DNA of 64,000 bases from an uncultured archaeon (GTDB lineage Archaea > Aenigmatarchaeota > Aenigmatarchaeia > QMZP01), in NCBI GenBank assembly GCA_964607835.1, contig CAZSLL010000005.1, positions 4,785 to 68,784 of the forward strand, written 5' to 3'. The first letter of the stretch is position 1, and every line of letters starts with the position of its first letter. The notes below the pieces were generated by a model. It saw only the letters and a program-made list of their open reading frames with translations, did no database searches and was not told where the DNA came from. A program made the position numbers and the translations under genes. Shown in pieces: positions 5,771 through 63,296 of this stretch.

Positions 5771-5932
5771 TTTGGACGCCTGCCTGTCCAAAAAAGGTTC
5801 AGTTGCGGCAGCGGTCTTTTTCGGGAGCGTTTTTTGGACGCCTGCCTGTCCAAAAAAGGTTCAATTGCGGCAGCGGTCTTTTTCGGGAGCGTTTTTTGGA
5901 CGCCTGCCTGTCCAAAAAAGGTTCAAGCGGAG
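5771..5932. repeat. 62-bp tandem direct repeat, about 2.5 copies, each with a 10-bp-stem hairpin (TTTTTTGGAC/GTCCAAAAAA)
   Basis: The unit is tggacgcctgcctgtccaaaaaaggttcaNttgcggcagcggtctttttcgggagcgtttt. Copies start at 5773, 5835 and 5897. The unit resembles the 3' flank and intron region of the adjacent tRNA-Cys gene. Confidence 0.7.
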
Positions 5933-5935
5933 GCG

Positions 5936-6127
5936 GGGAGATTCGGAACCAATGTTCGCAACATCTGCCAAGCGGCAGCGGTGTTTCCGCGAACGCTTTT
6001 GCACGTTTATCATGTGCAAAAGGGCTCTGTCGAACCCCGTTAACCCGCTTTCAGCAACGCCCTGTCCTGAAAAGGGCTGCACTGCAGGCGGGCACATGGC
6101 CGTTCTGTCACCTCCGCTTTAATGCCC
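5936..6127 (-). tRNA. tRNA-Cys(GCA)-like gene with two insertions: an anticodon-loop intron of about 33 nt and a T-loop intron of about 89 nt
   Basis: On the minus strand I can pair the acceptor stem GCGGAGG/CCTCCGC with discriminator U, the D-arm ACAG-AACGGCCA-TGT, the anticodon stem CCCGC/GCGGG with loop CTGCA|intron|AA (anticodon GCA), and the T-stem CGGGG/CCCCG split after TTCGA. I folded this by hand. Confidence 0.5.
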
Positions 6128-6167: not shown

Positions 6168-7112
6168 TTATTTGTTTGCAGAGAGCATTAAACTGCCTTC
6201 CCTGACAGCGTCCGAGTATTTCTTCAGGGCGGCATCGAAACTATCCCCCATCTCCAGGTATGACCTGATGCTCTCCACGCGCTCTACATAGTCATTGCAC
6301 TCTTTCTCATGCTTGCCCTTTCCGTTGGGTCCGGCGAAATAGCACTTGAGGGCCTCTTCCATGTCACCATCCTCATGAACCTCATAGTGCTTGAGAAGGG
6401 CCATGCCAGTCACAATGTTTGCGTAGGGGGATTCCCTCACCCTTTCCCAGACCTCCTCAGGGCCTCCCCCGAAGATATGGGCATACTTCTCAAGGGCATA
6501 CTCTCCTATTTCCTTTCTGGAATCATTGAATCTCTTTCCTTTGCCTGAGAAGAGCTCTCTCGTCTCGGCGCTTGAGACCTGGTTGAGCTGCATGTATCCG
6601 ACATTCCCTGTAATGGATTCAGCATCATGGTCTCCCCATGATTCCTTTCCTATCATTGCAAGAACGAGTTCAGGGTCGAGATTGAAATCACCTGCCACCT
6701 CATTCACGATACTCACGAAACCAGGTTCATCAGGTACGGTTGCAGCGCTCCTATAAGGCTCCGGCCCCGACCCCAGGTCTTCAGAGCTGAAGCCGGTCCT
6801 GGGGTTTATCATTGTTGGTTCAGGCACTAGGTCAGGGGCAGAGGCCGCCTTGGAAGGGTCAAAAGGAGGAGGCTCGTTCTCCTTCCAGGTTCCCTTTTGG
6901 CTCTCTTCCAGGAAATCCCTGTCCCTTTCATCGGCTTTACCTGGATGAGGCTGCCCAACATTCTCATAAGGATAATACATTGCATCAGCATCGTGGTCTC
7001 TCGGGATGCCAAAGAGGGCTGCAAGGCTCATGAATCCAGCAGCAGCTATCTCCACAGCGTATCTGGACACGAAGCCCCTTCCTTCACCAATCCCGGAGGT
7101 TTCTCTAGACAT
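6168..7112 (-). CDS. SLT-domain (lytic transglycosylase-like) protein with a low-complexity Pro/Glu-rich N-terminal region
   Basis: The C-terminal half contains the SLT motifs LVLAMIGKESWGD (catalytic Glu-Ser), GYMQLNQVSSAE and PYANIVTGMALLKHY...YFAGPNG. Confidence 0.5.
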   Translation of the reverse strand: MSRETSGIGEGRGFVSRYAVEIAAAGFMSLAALFGIPRDHDADAMYYPYENVGQPHPGKADERDRDFLEESQKGTWKENEPPPFDPSKAASAPDLVPEPTMINPRTGFSSEDLGSGPEPYRSAATVPDEPGFVSIVNEVAGDFNLDPELVLAMIGKESWGDHDAESITGNVGYMQLNQVSSAETRELFSGKGKRFNDSRKEIGEYALEKYAHIFGGGPEEVWERVRESPYANIVTGMALLKHYEVHEDGDMEEALKCYFAGPNGKGKHEKECNDYVERVESIRSYLEMGDSFDAALKKYSDAVREGSLMLSANK

Positions 7113-25108: not shown

Positions 25109-25267
25109 ATGGAAAGGCCAGGACTGTGCGTGATATGCGGTAGGGTCGCAGACCCGGCATACACCTGCATGCTCTGCGGCGCCATTGTGTGCTCAGAGCA
25201 TTTCGACATGGAGAAGGGTGTGTGCAACAGGTGCCTTTCCAGAACAGGGCGCTCTTCCGGGATTTAA
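25109..25267 (+). CDS. Small zinc-ribbon protein
   Basis: 52 aa with two CxxC pairs. Support is weak. Confidence 0.3.
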   Translation: MERPGLCVICGRVADPAYTCMLCGAIVCSEHFDMEKGVCNRCLSRTGRSSGI

Positions 25268-25288
25268 AACCCAGGGAGTTTGTTCGAG

Positions 25289-25568
25289 CCGGGGTGGCGG
25301 AACGGCTAGCGAGCTGGCCAGATTAAGAGTGATTGAATGCGGTCTGAAAGACCGGCGGTCAGCCGTCCGTAAAACGCGCACGACTGGAAACACAATCGCA
25401 CTGGAGCGTATGCGGCTGAGAAGCAGCCGATTGTGCCTTCAATCGTGTGTCCGAAAGGACGTGCAGGTTCAAAGAACCCTTTTGCGCAGGCAAGCGCGCA
25501 AAAGCGTTCGCGGAAAGAACGCTACCGCACTAATGCGGTCGGGTCTGGGAATCCTGTCCCCGGCGTAT
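25289..25568 (+). tRNA. tRNA-like gene of about 280 nt; the acceptor and T-arm halves bracket long insertions, and the T-loop insertion carries the conserved core
   Basis: The 5' end GCCGGGG pairs with CCCCGGC plus G at the 3' end. The T-stem GCAGG...CCTGT is split after TTCAA by an insertion that begins AGAACCCTTTTGCGC...GCGCAAAAGCGTTCGCGGAAA. An anticodon-like hairpin CGGT-CTGAAAG-ACCG is present, which would read GAA (Phe), but I could not fully resolve the D-arm or the remaining insertions. Confidence 0.35.
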
Positions 25569-25595
25569 TATTCTCGCAGCCAGCCGGAAGAATGT

Positions 25596-25660
25596 TTAAG
25601 TTGCTCCCCTGCTTGCGACTGAACCGGTTGGACCAAGCGGGAGCGTCCGTAAGCAGGGAT
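25596..25660 (+). ncRNA. Pseudoknot-like structured element, copy 1 (GCTCCC-CTGCTTG...GGGAGC...AAGCAGGG)
   Basis: It has two crossing helices (GCTCCC/GGGAGC and CCTGCTT/AAGCAGG). Against the copies at 31116 and 31239 the second helix shows a compensatory change (CCCGCTT/AAGCGGG). Confidence 0.45.
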
Positions 25661-25799
25661 TAGCCTGGCGTGGACGCGAACACCACAAGAAGGAGGCTCA
25701 GTGCAAGGATTATGGCCAGGATGTAGTGCTTCTTGATGACGAGCTTCTGCTTCTCCATGCTATATTTTCTTGTTGGTGTGATAAAAAGCTTGCCGACTG

Positions 25800-30847: not shown

Positions 30848-30903
30848 GGAAAGCTTTTTAACCTAACATCTCCCTTTTAATCTTTAGCCCAAACCTTTCT
30901 TAT

Positions 30904-31048
30904 GCGGGAGTGTCCGAGCGGTCAAAGGGGCAAGGTTGAGGGCCTTGTGGCTTAGAACCCTTTTACAGGAGCCAAAGCGTCCGCAAAAGCGTTCGCGGAA
31001 AACCCGTAAAGGGGTAAGCAATGCCTTCGCAGGTTCGAATCCTGTCTC
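30904..31048 (+). tRNA. tRNA-Leu(GAG) with an insertion of about 66 nt in the variable arm that carries the conserved core
   Basis: The folded parts are acceptor GCGGGAG/CTCCCGC plus A, a class-II D-arm (GAGCGGTCAAA), anticodon stem CAAGG/CCTTG with loop TTGAGGG, and an intact T-arm GCAGG-TTCGAAT-CCTGT. The insert is AGAACCCTTTTACAGG...CCGCAAAAGCGTTCGCGGAAAACCCG.... Confidence 0.6.
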
Positions 31049-31115
31049 CCGCATTACACCTTTCTTTACAGGAGGTCACGACCTTCCTCAAGAAAGCCGT
31101 GGGAAAGAAATAATA

Positions 31116-31209
31116 ATGCATGTTGCTCCCCCGCTTGAGTGCCTGCCGGCCCATCCCCCTGCACAGTGGCCGGACGGGAAAGGTTTTCGGGAGCCTCTTG
31201 TAAGCGGGG
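31116..31209 (+). ncRNA. Pseudoknot-like structured element, copy 2 (long variable loop)
   Basis: ATGCATGTTGCTCCCCCGCTTG...GGGAGCctcttgtAAGCGGGG. The same two helices as copy 1 are present, and an inner GCCGGCC/GGCCGGC hairpin sits in the loop. Confidence 0.45.
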
Positions 31210-31238
31210 ATTGTATTCATCAATCTGGTTGGAAGCTT

Positions 31239-31289
31239 ATGCGTGTTGCTCCCCCGCTTGGAGAAGGCGGGAGCCTCTTGTAAGCGGGG
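31239..31289 (+). ncRNA. Pseudoknot-like structured element, copy 3 (short loop)
   Basis: ATGCGTGTTGCTCCCCCGCTTGgagaaggcGGGAGCctcttgtAAGCGGGG. Confidence 0.45.
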
Positions 31290-31346
31290 TATCATGTCTC
31301 CTGCTTTACGTTTTCTCTTTTTTGGAGTCGAGGGCCGAGATGCCCG

Positions 31347-62959: not shown

Positions 62960-63067
62960 GAAACCACTGATTATATTATTGCTGACCTAGTATAAAAACA
63001 AAACCCGGACGCGGAAGCGGCCGCAGGTGAGCTTAATTTAAATCATAAGACAAGAAGGAAAATGATG

Positions 63068-63296
63068 GGCCCGTAGTTCAATGGATTATGGCCTGCCTTG
63101 GCGGGCTGTCCGGAGAGAATGCGGGATTGCGGATCCTGTGATCTGGGTTCGATAGAACCCTTTTGGCCGGTAAACGTCCAAAAGCGGTGTCCGTAAGGAC
63201 ACCATCTGCCAGGGAACCTGACAGAAGCGTTCGCGGAAAGGACGCTGCCGAACTGAGATTTCAGAGGCATTGTTCACGCACGCCCCAGCGGGCCCA
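63068..63296 (+). tRNA. tRNA-like gene of about 229 nt with a T-loop insertion carrying the conserved core, plus further 5' extra sequence; isotype unresolved
   Basis: Acceptor GGGCCCG/CGGGCCC plus A. T-stem CTGGG/CCCAG is split after TTCGA by TAGAACCCTTTTGGCC...CCAAAAGCGG...AGAAGCGTTCGCGGAAAGGACGC.... I could not fold the D and anticodon arms cleanly. Confidence 0.4.

Follow-up and report, generated by a model that had tools for sequence, protein, structure and literature searches.

A self-folding hairpin module recurs in the trailers, leaders, spacers and an intron of tRNA genes, and between protein genes, in Aenigmatarchaeota

What is the structured element that follows intron-containing tRNA genes in this stretch of archaeal DNA, and does it belong to those tRNAs? 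The sequence-only reading of the window (the whole stretch of 64,000 nucleotides analyzed here) had described a pseudoknot-like RNA element in three copies. The copies were readily recovered: the 16-mer GTTGCTCCCCYGCTTG occurs exactly three times in the window, at 25600, 31122 and 31245, always on the plus strand, and the shared 3' half is equally real, since GGGAGC-N7-AAGCRGGG matches exactly at 31189-31209 and 31269-31289, while copy 1 has an N6 linker. We call the element Y, and a second module that recurs in the same tRNA loci (AGAACCCUUUU...CAAAAGCGUUCGCGGAAA) X; Y often comes after X. The three copies were scored with a covariance model (CM) built from relatives, and lie in the following context.

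5775..6117, minus strand: fourth intron-containing tRNA (6117-5926), then three tandem 62-nt X-like units (5925 to ~5775).
25288..25565, plus strand: tRNA-Ser(GGA) with several introns, read from the sequence, the context of copy 1; its T-loop intron is an X module (25474-25551) and its 3' exon lies at 25552-25565.
25585..25658 (core 25600-25658), plus strand: Y copy 1, CM 46.6 bits, E ~1e-9; GUUGCUC tail, basal helix CCCUGCUU/AAGCAGGG, GAC/GUC inner helix, 17-nt side insert, apical GC-GGGA-GC.
30904..31053, plus strand: tRNA-Leu(GAG), Rfam tRNA 39.8 bits, the context of copies 2 and 3; X-type intron in the variable-arm region (~30950-31028), with the X motif AAAGCGTTCGCGGAAA at 30986-31001.
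31054..31106, plus strand: tRNA-Leu trailer, UUACACCUUUCUUUACAGGAGG..CCUUCCUCAAGAAAG, compared by eye with the trailers of the relatives L124 and L125.
31107..31209 (core 31122-31209), plus strand: Y copy 2, CM 29.4 bits with default filters.
31210..31229, plus strand: spacer between the tandem copies 2 and 3, with TATTCATCAAT at 31214-31224.
31230..31289 (core 31245-31289), plus strand: Y copy 3, CM 69.1 bits, E ~1e-15; the canonical short form, with GUUGCUC, CCCCGCUU/AAGCGGGG, AGA/UCU and GGC-GGGA-GCC.
31290..31309, plus strand: decayed duplicate of the tRNA-Leu 3' end and trailer start, TATCATGTCTCCTGCTTTAC versus AATCCTGTCTCCCGCATTAC, 16/20 identical.
31311..31326, plus strand: T-rich run GTTTTCTCTTTTTTGG, read from the sequence.
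63067..63296, plus strand: third intron-containing tRNA; the intron in its T loop is of the X type, and the trailer starts TCCATATTCATCAAT.

Copy 1 starts 34 nt past the 3' end of tRNA-Ser and folds with a z score of -3.75; a small ORF of the opposite strand ends right there, its stop codon touching the last base of the copy. Copy 3 serves as row 1 of alignment A2. Copy 2 shares the tail and basal helix of copy 3, its apical part is broken by an insert, and a CM search with filters off matched part of the element only; the same unfiltered search gave no further Y in the window beyond the three copies. The extra loop with its own hairpin that had been noticed in copy 2 is indeed there, as an insert of ~51 nt (~31138-31188) forming GCCGGCC/GGCCGG. 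It occupies the position where other family members hold inserts of 15-50 nt, and its sequence is found again in L125, adjoining Y but outside its hairpin. The motif TATTCATCAAT, which had been thought to follow both copy 2 and another tRNA, does occur exactly at 31214 and 63301; chance can produce as much, since two or more hits turned up in 16 of 100 shuffles when one mismatch was allowed. ARAGORN detected none of the four intron-containing tRNAs of the window. That standard finders miss multi-intron tRNAs and these elements suggests that the tRNA sets of DPANN archaea are probably under-annotated.

We then examined the fold of Y. Over ~60 nt it consists of a U-rich stretch, the conserved tail GUUGCUY and a single long imperfect hairpin. 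The lower part of the hairpin is built from an 8-bp basal helix (NNNNGCUU/AAGCNNNN), a G.U pair that is invariant, a C-G pair and, on the 3' strand, a bulged pyrimidine; above these, an inner 3-bp helix alternates between AGA/UCU, AUA/UAU and GAC/GUC; and the top carries a 5'-strand bulge able to hold a side arm of 15-50 nt, a GC clamp and a GNNA tetraloop, the last found in 35 of 38 sequences. When 24 sequences were aligned, 99.2% of cells were paired and six pairs had changed on both sides; none of 500 shuffles equaled this, and slid controls reached 29-41%. With 52 distinct sequences, 97.8% of cells were paired, and changes on both sides were seen in 9/15 pairs (137 cells), again matched by 0/500 shuffles. 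Covariation thus persists in the larger alignment. It extends to the inner 3-bp helix (AU/GC, GC/AU/UA and AU/CG), which both the search pattern and the filter had left free. Of the four variable basal pairs, all of which are paired, three covary as Watson-Crick pairs and the fourth is a near-invariant C-G, and RNAalifold independently predicts the same nested hairpin. Among paired cells there are 66 G.U (52 from one invariant pair) as against 6 A.C, an excess that points to one strand as the folded strand.

These data bear directly on the proposal that Y is an H-type pseudoknot RNA in which GCUCCC/GGGAGC (helix 1) interleaves with CCCGCUU/AAGCGGG (helix 2), possibly as a small ribozyme-like or HDV-like molecule. 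Helix 2 was correctly seen: CCCYGCUU/AAGCRGGG is the basal stem, and it covaries in the window (C-G to U-A) and family-wide. Helix 1, and the pseudoknot with it, did not survive. The three window copies do allow both helices to be drawn, and tail and apical loop share a GCU/AGC complementarity in all 38 distinct members; those bases, the only ones of helix 1 whose pairs hold, were fixed by the search pattern, however, and the three free pairs of the helix formed in 66/114 cells against a shuffle mean of 70. In the nested hairpin, GGGAGC is simply made up of the GNNA tetraloop and the apical stem's 3' strand. The would-be single-stranded linker is likewise paired in a covarying nested helix, which was also why an HDV-like topology was dropped. 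An H-type pseudoknot with zero nucleotides between the 5' strands of its two helices is sterically difficult, and here no nucleotide intervenes. Rfam returned no ribozyme or pseudoknot match at E <=10, and we regard this explanation as very improbable. The GUUGCU tail can also be drawn paired with AGGUAAC of the X module or with an upstream GUAA; the bases involved are invariant or the register shifts.

No Rfam family matches Y, as had been anticipated. In the window, tRNA alone reaches the gathering threshold of Rfam release 15, and at E <=10 the copies, the leader of L120 and an X-Y composite gave chance-level miRNA and snoRNA matches only. Inspection of 38 sequences and their flanks for guide sRNA features (C RUGAUGA, D CUGA, tandem G.A, a constant ACA after the hairpin) showed none to be conserved.

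The element is far from private to this window. A metagenome scan with the Y pattern yielded 91 loci. Across the collected loci plus the window there were 103 pattern matches, of which 68 have at least 7/8 basal pairs and 35, with six or fewer, are chance; the CM picked up additional copies that the pattern search had overlooked. Further copies, on which the idea of a conserved element depended, therefore exist in number: at least 50 distinct ones in related Aenigmatarchaeota (DPANN) contigs, at a density of ~1 copy per 15-20 kb in loci not selected for carrying Y. With the host lineage assigned via EF-1alpha, the family is, as far as sampled, confined to one Aenigmatarchaeota clade, and constitutes a previously unlisted many-copy hairpin family in these tiny DPANN archaea. 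A genome scan with the bare 16-mer GTTGCTCCCCYGCTTG produced chance matches in unrelated bacteria only, in none of which the 3' half was present. A viral origin was considered and set aside: in a viral collection the pattern gave six chance-like matches, two of them on contigs already classed as chance in the metagenome scan. One Y locus also holds a group-II-like reverse transcriptase and an RT-16 RNA, with no obvious link to Y.

A position immediately downstream of tRNA genes, as claimed from the window, holds there; in relatives, most copies stand 5' of tRNAs, within the intron of a tRNA, in front of radA or between protein genes. In L120 and L124 it stands directly 5' of tRNA-Leu +1, and in L125 it is 47 nt from that gene, with the GCCGGCC hairpin sequence between. 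In L133 and L200 another tRNA is 0-3 nt away, and in L210 the element has a tRNA on either side. In the tRNA-Ile of L130, Y forms the end of a T-loop intron, as hairpin-UGGGAA^UCCCUCC, and in L124, L136 and L166 it precedes exact duplicates of a tRNA 3' exon. It is found upstream of radA in three lineages; the sequence AGCGGAATAGCGGAAC behind Y, at one point taken for a tRNA 5' end, is actually a repeat that lies shortly before the radA promoter. Intergenic X-Y composites occur, one of which (L208) begins right behind a stop codon, and L204 has an antisense X inserted within a Y. The window has a tandem array, as have L120, L135, L155 and L213. At orthologous sites Y may be present in one relative and missing from another, two examples being the tRNA-Leu leader and the tRNA-Ser trailer, the latter filled in L124, L136 and L166 and empty in L126. 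Y and tRNA share their direction at each of six independent tRNA-linked sites; relative to protein genes, the orientation of Y is mixed. Many copies are remote from any tRNA, in either orientation with respect to protein genes, and for those a role in RNA processing is not apparent. Thus, the description of Y as an uncharacterized structured ncRNA or cis-element at tRNA loci stands insofar as it is conserved, structured, tRNA-linked and without an Rfam counterpart; it is a module of a repeat family, however, and not a stand-alone ncRNA gene.

In the tRNAs of this lineage, the four of the window among them, the bulge-helix-bulge (BHB) introns are made of the X module. The tRNA-Ser of the window has orthologues in L120, L124, L126 and L166, and a BHB scan of it placed the 5' splice site at GGUUCAAA^, with UUCA/UGGG as the central helix and the T stem, of 5 bp, forming the outer one. 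More generally, X-only T-loop introns fit a relaxed BHB motif with central UUCA/UGGG or UUCA/UGGA, the 5-bp T stem outside and a weak inner helix. The three tandem X-like units behind the tRNA at 6117-5926 indicate that X also builds tandem arrays in tRNA trailers. By sequence, X looks like an inverted, diverged relative of Y: in alignment A4, Y-like forms bridge rc(X) and Y in a continuum, and in L153 the CM matches X elements on their antisense strand, the probable homology of X with rc(Y) being drawn from a short alignment and intermediate forms. The tRNA-Leu trailer at 31054..31106 is, to judge from the comparison by eye, a decayed hairpin module homologous to the X-like trailers of L124 and L125, both of which give weak antisense CM matches at the corresponding place.

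In L130, Y-UGGGAA^U, which shares the central helix UUCA/UGGG with the X-only introns, puts the hairpin at the inner-helix position of the BHB motif, and the 5' bulge is then a long loop. This inner-helix case concerns one tRNA, and the samples L130, L146 and L152 count as one evolutionary event. The window copies of Y sit outside any intron. Where Y forms a leader, the hairpin stands directly against +1 and the junction has neither bulge nor central helix, so that no splicing endonuclease motif is evident there. The second 3'-exon copies behind Y make a poorer BHB than the first, in which 3/4 central pairs can form provided that the GGGG strand opens; their use as an alternative 3' splice site, which we considered, is possible on a motif poorer than that of the first copy. 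Y alone as a mini-intron was rejected because it needs a bulged hairpin foot, yet all four variable basal pairs are paired, and a BHB drawn round the L130 hairpin itself conflicts with the same basal-pair covariation and hence is not general.

We propose, as a tentative preference falling a little short of an even chance, that Y is a self-folding module within a repeat family that is itself modular, mobile, intron-like and present in many copies. The repeats would spread as DNA into and around tRNA genes and intergenic DNA, and within tRNA transcription units only the self-folding orientation of Y would survive. Neither a transposase or integrase in the 10 flanking ORFs examined nor a target-site duplication turned up that could account for such mobility. 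There, Y would be an inert, self-contained stem, flush against a processing site. In an L130-type tRNA-Ile intron it could act as the BHB inner helix, followed by UGGG as a strand of the central helix and by AA^U as the bulge with the 3' splice site, and so may help the splicing endonuclease to set the 3' cut; where it forms a 5' leader or a spacer between tRNAs, it would be lost through normal end-processing. The copies of the window are trailer copies, one behind tRNA-Ser and a tandem pair behind tRNA-Leu, outside the mature tRNAs. They would most simply be the remains of insertion or duplication, for example of a truncated second tRNA copy with a Y-ended T-loop intron. The 16/20 relic at 31290..31309, the top non-self match on both window strands, begins exactly at the 3' end of the copy 3 hairpin and parallels the exact 3'-exon duplicates that follow Y in L124, L136 and L166. 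Since oligo-T is a known termination signal of archaeal RNA polymerase, the T-rich run just beyond it is a plausible terminator for a tRNA-Leu / Y / Y transcript.

Several other explanations were weighed against this proposal. X and Y might be DNA palindromes of the REP/REPIN or BIME kind, with a single-stranded hairpin that a HUH/Y1 (IS200/RAYT-like) or other enzyme recognizes for movement, any effect in RNA being incidental and the link to tRNAs reflecting target preference or tolerance. The general layout agrees with this: a conserved 5' tag, GTTGCTY, precedes an imperfect palindrome (hairpin 36-52 nt); the copies, at least 50 of them distinct, are chiefly intergenic, often fill the spacer up to a stop codon and are of mixed orientation to protein genes; two hairpin types alternate in tandem pairs (L135, L155 and L213); X-Y composites resemble inverted pairs of related hairpins; one element is nested in another; and orthologous sites are filled or empty without target duplication. 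Strand-specific G.T pairing would also fit a hairpin of the top DNA strand, mini-hairpins of the GCGNAGC type are very stable as DNA too, and compensatory changes among copies of a mobile element can equally come from selection on the DNA hairpin during transposition. Weighing against it, the 10 ORFs flanking copy-rich loci include no Y1/HUH transposase, TnpB, IS200 or integrase, and neither they nor the window genes checked include a RAYT transposase. An IS200/IS605-derived element is likewise not supported, the 5' ends of X-Y composites having no direct-orientation Y-like hairpin and the 5' junctions no constant target. RAYT/REP systems are unreported from archaea, where published surveys have no RAYT subclass and IS200-type TnpA only (PMC6006769). 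Nor does the idea account easily for the shared direction of Y and tRNA at every one of the six independent tRNA-linked sites, with Y 0-3 nt from processing sites, for a hairpin kept with compensatory differences at orthologous sites (tRNA-Leu leader, tRNA-Ser trailer, radA upstream), or for the register of Y with the BHB motif in L130. We consider it unlikely, though not remote. A reading that joins the two views seems to us similarly doubtful: X and Y would be two orientations of one REPIN-like palindromic element of DPANN archaea, whose copies become introns, leaders or spacers when they land in tRNA units in the foldable orientation, the Y hairpin being a portable inner helix that makes a 3' splicing-endonuclease site.

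Y could also encode a small RNA of ~55 nt, transcribed from a promoter of its own, the GUUGCUY tail or the upstream Sm-site-like AAUUUUUG serving as binding or seed region, the hairpin as a protein-binding or stabilizing stem, and the tRNA merely setting the 3' end via RNase P. Most stand-alone copies do have an A/T-rich TATA-like box ~25-40 nt before GTTGCT, which would place the start a few bases from the tail, and a similar box lies ~30 nt ahead of the start codons of neighboring genes; the single-stranded tail is strongly conserved, though partly imposed by the search pattern, and several lineages have kept copies in front of radA and tRNA-Leu. X-Y composites and the L130 intron have no such box at the right distance, so that Y is there internal to a longer RNA, and window copy 1 has no promoter-like box at all. 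In some copies, such as L144, the box is homologous to part of the X motif. There is no consistent terminator behind the hairpin, and dozens of copies with varying stem-base sequence would be unusual for a trans-acting RNA, which makes an sRNA gene improbable. A still less probable view takes Y as an arm of an integrative plasmid or virus whose tyrosine integrase targets the 3' part of tRNAs, with [tRNA][short DNA][Y][3'-end duplicate] as attL and attR around a nearly wholly deleted element. Direct repeats of ~16-25 bp, which extend from the T loop to a point shortly beyond the end of the tRNA, do flank Y DNA, exactly in L124, L136 and L166 and at 16/20 in the window; the arrangement has the usual shape of a tRNA att site, and in Caldiarchaeum the integration of mobile elements leaving tRNA fragments and introns has been described (PMC3293823). 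The DNA between the repeats, however, amounts to only 75-240 bp and contains no gene or integrase; Y stands beside repeats from two different tRNAs (Ser and Leu); most copies (5' leaders, intron, radA upstream, intergenic) have no tRNA fragment; no viral contig carries Y; and the 5' edge of each duplicate is a T-loop intron/exon boundary, for which a truncated second tRNA copy is the simpler account.

Returning to Y as part of an intron-like repeat family, we compared it with known systems. Closest are the transposed BHB tRNA introns of Thermoproteales (Fujishima et al. 2010, as presented in PMC4090602), near-identical short sequences in different tRNA genes and mostly at non-canonical positions, whose spread is there presumed to act on DNA. 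In both cases, as far as that account goes, similar modules occur across tRNAs and positions in a host rich in multi-intron tRNAs. Here, unlike there, the modules also lie outside tRNAs (leaders, trailers, inter-tRNA spacers, radA upstream, between protein genes), form tandem arrays, are nested and comprise two related hairpins in opposite orientation, and the host is a DPANN rather than a TACK archaeon. Broad specificity has been reported for DPANN splicing endonucleases (PMC5829648). With bacterial REP/REPIN/BIME elements Y shares a short conserved tag before an imperfect palindrome of 35-60 nt, tens or more of intergenic copies, mosaics of few modules, alternating hairpin types, compensatory differences and the lack of target-site duplication. 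It differs in its archaeal host, where we identified no RAYT or other transposase, in its tag (GTTGCTY versus GTAG or CGTC), in its co-orientation at tRNA processing sites and the service of one module as a tRNA intron, and in having a GNNA loop and an invariant G.U pair. As in the tRNA-Thr of Caldiarchaeum subterraneum (PMC3293823) and split-tRNA leaders, a partial tRNA duplicate and repeated foreign DNA lie beside an intact intron-containing tRNA, and leader and intron sequences are related; in contrast to the Caldiarchaeum case, the intervening DNA measures 75-240 bp without a recombinase gene and the duplicated piece is the 3' exon behind a T-loop intron. Nothing points to trans-splicing here, since the upstream tRNA is intact. 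Finally, like the right-end hairpin of IS200/IS605 and the TnpB omega-RNA (PMC12558985), Y is a terminal hairpin that abuts a variable flank, without target duplication or terminal inverted repeats; unlike these, it has no tnpA or tnpB near the copies examined, no direct-orientation left-end hairpin, a stem base that varies and no match to an Rfam omega-RNA or sotRNA.

Gain and movement of archaeal tRNA introns have so far been approached through "intron transposition," inferred from similar introns in different tRNAs, and no mobile form of such introns outside tRNAs has been described (PMC4090602). In the present lineage, tRNA-intron modules are also free intergenic repeats, arrays, leaders, spacers and nested copies, beside 3'-exon duplicates and at filled and empty sites. 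The sequences, the covariance model and the named loci make the spread of archaeal tRNA introns more testable, including the choice between a DNA and an RNA route and the enzyme involved, and the system also allows the substitution of a hairpin for part of the splicing motif to be tested. Should the REPIN-like reading prove true, it would provide direct evidence that BHB introns arise by domestication of a DNA-level hairpin transposon, and the elements would be the first REP-like system described in archaea.

A stem between leader and trailer that assists processing was considered as well and is not conserved, since the L125 leader has a different apical type and gives no duplex. Pairing of the Y leader with the trailer of tRNA-Leu could give a duplex of ~22 bp in L124, with a cofold energy of -41.6 kcal/mol versus -31.2 kcal/mol when the two are folded separately.

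Y, a hairpin element of about 60 nt, constitutes a new, strongly covarying, and strand-specific family that is modularly linked to the tRNA introns of its lineage and is repeated and polymorphic in its distribution. The window is archaeal chromosome, with genes for aEF-1alpha, an NFACT protein, undecaprenyl-diphosphate synthase, and a histone-fold protein; since the closest named relative of its EF-1alpha belongs to a Candidatus Aenigmatarchaeota MAG (83% identity), the host is a DPANN archaeon. Four tRNA genes lie in the window.

tRNA genes of the window
25288-25565, +, tRNA-Ser(GGA), multi-intron
30904-31053, +, tRNA-Leu(GAG)
63067-63296, +, third tRNA, intron-containing
6117-5926 (within 5775-6117), −, fourth tRNA, intron-containing, reported by no tool

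ARAGORN reported zero tRNAs in the window and Rfam reported tRNA-Leu only; therefore, most tRNAs of this genome would escape standard annotation. Each of the 4 genes carries at least one large intron at a non-canonical position (D region, variable arm, T loop). Because TATA-like boxes (window 25263-25290, 30870-30903, and 63033-63066) begin ~25–30 nt 5′ of tRNA +1, the 5′ leader of the transcripts may be very short or absent, a situation like that in Nanoarchaeum equitans. To our knowledge, N. equitans is without RNase P.

The exact sequence GTTGCTCCCCYGCTTG was found at 25600, 31122, and 31245 on the + strand and nowhere else in the window, followed in 3/3 copies by the 3′ half GGGAGC-N6/7-AAGCRGGG, and a covariance model returned exactly three Y copies (69.1, 46.6, and 29.4 bits). 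Their placement was as the sequence-only reading had stated: copy 1 lies 34 nt past tRNA-Ser(GGA), while copies 2 and 3 stand in tandem, 68 nt past tRNA-Leu(GAG). Copy 1 is flanked by the 3′ end of tRNA-Ser on one side and by a small opposite-strand ORF, at its stop codon, on the other. This ORF (window 25652-25762, −; ~36 codons, apparently hydrophobic), whose stop codon directly adjoins the 3′ end of copy 1, has an apparent orthologue at 9333-9413 of L126, a contig from a relative (as are the other L-numbered loci); the L126 spacer orthologous to the copy 1 site is 9 nt long, without the element. Copies 2 and 3 represent a recent tandem duplication, because their tails and 3′ halves are identical. 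Copy 2 is broken by a ~51-nt insert, the same sequence as adjoins Y in L125. At 16/20 positions, the 20 nt past copy 3 agree with the 3′ end of tRNA-Leu plus trailer; no other non-self match in the window is as good. A T-rich run comes next. A third small module, CCUGCCGGCCCAUCC...GGCCGGAYGGG, folds into its own hairpin.

Occurrences of the third small module
window 31138-31188, inside the copy 2 loop
L125 ~6719-6766, −, between Y and tRNA-Leu

A first collection scan with the bare 16-mer gave chance matches only, and a pattern scan of the viral collection gave only chance-like ones. Using EF-1alpha as an anchor, we obtained syntenic loci from relatives with 84–88% EF-1alpha identity, and a scan of the metagenome collection with a longer pattern yielded 91 loci. 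The pattern matched 103 times in the window and all loci collected by then, 68 times with at least 7/8 basal pairs, the remaining 35/103 being chance (≤6 of 8 basal pairs). A covariance model trained on 24 short Y copies recovered copies overlooked by the pattern. Further copies thus exist, and no Rfam family matched the element even at E ≤ 10, in keeping with its earlier description as uncharacterised.

In alignments of 24 sequences and of 52 distinct sequences, Y is one nested hairpin, a structure that RNAalifold gives independently.

Elements of the Y hairpin
Basal helix: 8 bp, NNNNGCUU/AAGCNNNN
Above the basal helix: an invariant G.U pair, next a C-G pair
3′ strand: a bulged pyrimidine
Inner helix: 3 bp, alternating AGA/UCU, AUA/UAU, GAC/GUC
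5′-strand bulge: 1–2 nt, or a side arm of 15–50 nt
Apex: GNNA loop on a G(G)C/G(C)C clamp

Pairing in the Y alignments (24 sequences; 52 distinct sequences)
Cells paired: 99.2%; 97.8%
Pairs changed on both sides: 6; 9
Cells changed on both sides: 57; 137
Shuffles as good: 0/500; 0/500
Slid controls, paired: 29–41%; 22–49%

The covariation claimed in the sequence-only reading therefore holds in the larger alignment. The search pattern fixed GTTGCTY, GCTTG, AGC, and GTAAGC, and the basal helix served as a filter; constrained by neither, the inner 3-bp helix covaries cleanly. The stem base varies by compensatory changes (AUCA/UGAU, AUCG/CGAU, CCCC/GGGG). G.U pairs outnumbered A.C mismatches by 66 to 6, with one invariant pair supplying 52 of the G.U, and the strand as written is therefore the folding strand. 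The pseudoknot that had been proposed, in which tail GCUCCC pairs with GGGAGC as helix 1, was rejected: its variable pairs formed in 66/114 cells vs. 70 expected from shuffles, and GGGAGC makes up the tetraloop and apical stem.

Where Y adjoins a tRNA, it runs in the same direction as that tRNA at 6/6 independent sites. It lies upstream of tRNA-Leu, not downstream, in L120, L124, and L125, its last base abutting tRNA-Leu(GAG) +1 in the former two and standing 47 nt upstream of tRNA-Leu(GAG) in L125; in L120, promoter and Y are tandemly duplicated. Elsewhere, Y is found 0–3 nt from another tRNA (L133, L200), as the spacer separating two tRNAs (L210), or between tRNA-Ser and an exact second copy of the tRNA 3′ exon (L124, L136, L166), and in L130, which has a tandem pair of tRNA-Ile genes, it makes up the final portion of the T-loop intron in the second gene. 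These tRNA-Ile(GAU) genes (L130 3513-4048) have unlike introns, copy 1 an anticodon-loop intron and a T-loop intron made of the second module, X, only, and copy 2 an X-Y T-loop intron only; the intervening DNA holds two occurrences of GCCGCATTGAACCAATCGAACAAATGCGGC, a short repeat, and similar sequences lie past copy 2.

Intergenic Y takes either orientation relative to protein genes, often occupying the entire spacer up to a stop codon. In three lineages, Y precedes the radA promoter. Two apical types often alternate in tandem arrays. A direct repeat, AGCGGAAUAGCGGAA, which separates Y from the TATA box of radA and is conserved in three lineages, may be a regulator binding site for radA.

Occurrences of the AGCGGAAUAGCGGAA repeat
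L145 1049-1064
L204 2059-2074
L170 ~668-683

X (AGAACCCUUUU...CAAAAGCGUUCGCGGAAA) precedes many Y copies, forming X-Y composites of 165–185 nt between protein genes, one of which begins right after a stop codon in L208; X alone forms introns in 4/4 window tRNAs. Three tandem 62-nt X-like units, TGAACCTTTTTTGGACAGGCAGGCGTCCAAAAAACGCTCCCGAAAAAGACCGCTGCCGCAAT, come after the fourth window tRNA. X and Y appear to be divergent forms of a single, oppositely oriented palindromic unit, because the opposite strand of X aligns with Y via intermediate forms from L153 and L192 and the Y covariance model matches X copies on the antisense strand. In L204, Y is interrupted by antisense X, a nested insertion.

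In a simple scan, X-only T-loop introns fit a relaxed bulge-helix-bulge (BHB) splicing motif.

Relaxed BHB motif of X-only T-loop introns
5′ splice site: GGUUCAAA^
Central helix: UUCA/UGGG, with bulges AAN and AAU
Outer helix: the 5-bp T stem; inner helix weak

In the L130 X-Y intron, UGGGAA^UCCCUCC directly follows the hairpin, which would place Y exactly at the inner-helix position, beside the same central helix as in X-only introns. Past tRNA-Ser, hairpin-GGGG-AA^UCCUG could mimic the motif, but with 3/4 central pairs only, and opening of the stem would be needed; of the two 3′ exons, the first offers the better predicted splice site. A leader-trailer duplex in L124 was not conserved in L125 and was rejected.

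Y sites are filled in some relatives and empty in others, and target duplication was not visible at them. We infer that Y spreads as DNA; within tRNA transcripts, it would be a self-contained stem that tolerates or assists end-processing and splicing. The main rival is a REP-like DNA role; no transposase was found among 10 ORFs flanking copy-rich loci. For the window copies, the simplest origin, by analogy with the tandem tRNA-Ile pair of L130, would be a second, truncated copy of the tRNA with Y at the end of its T-loop intron. The arrangement may instead stem from an insertion that duplicated its target. It may also be the relic of an integrative element (cf. PMC3293823).

In L123, which is a population variant of the L120 contig, an insertion absent in L120, L121, and L122 has put a DDE_Tnp_1 (IS4/IS5-type) transposase gene (281-1150) beside the histone-fold gene. 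L153 9936-11401 (−) encodes a 360-aa reverse transcriptase resembling those of group II introns (184 bits to TIGR04416, under the cutoff of 300), with an Rfam RT-16 RNA match (60.9 bits) upstream and a multi-intron tRNA-Leu directly downstream.
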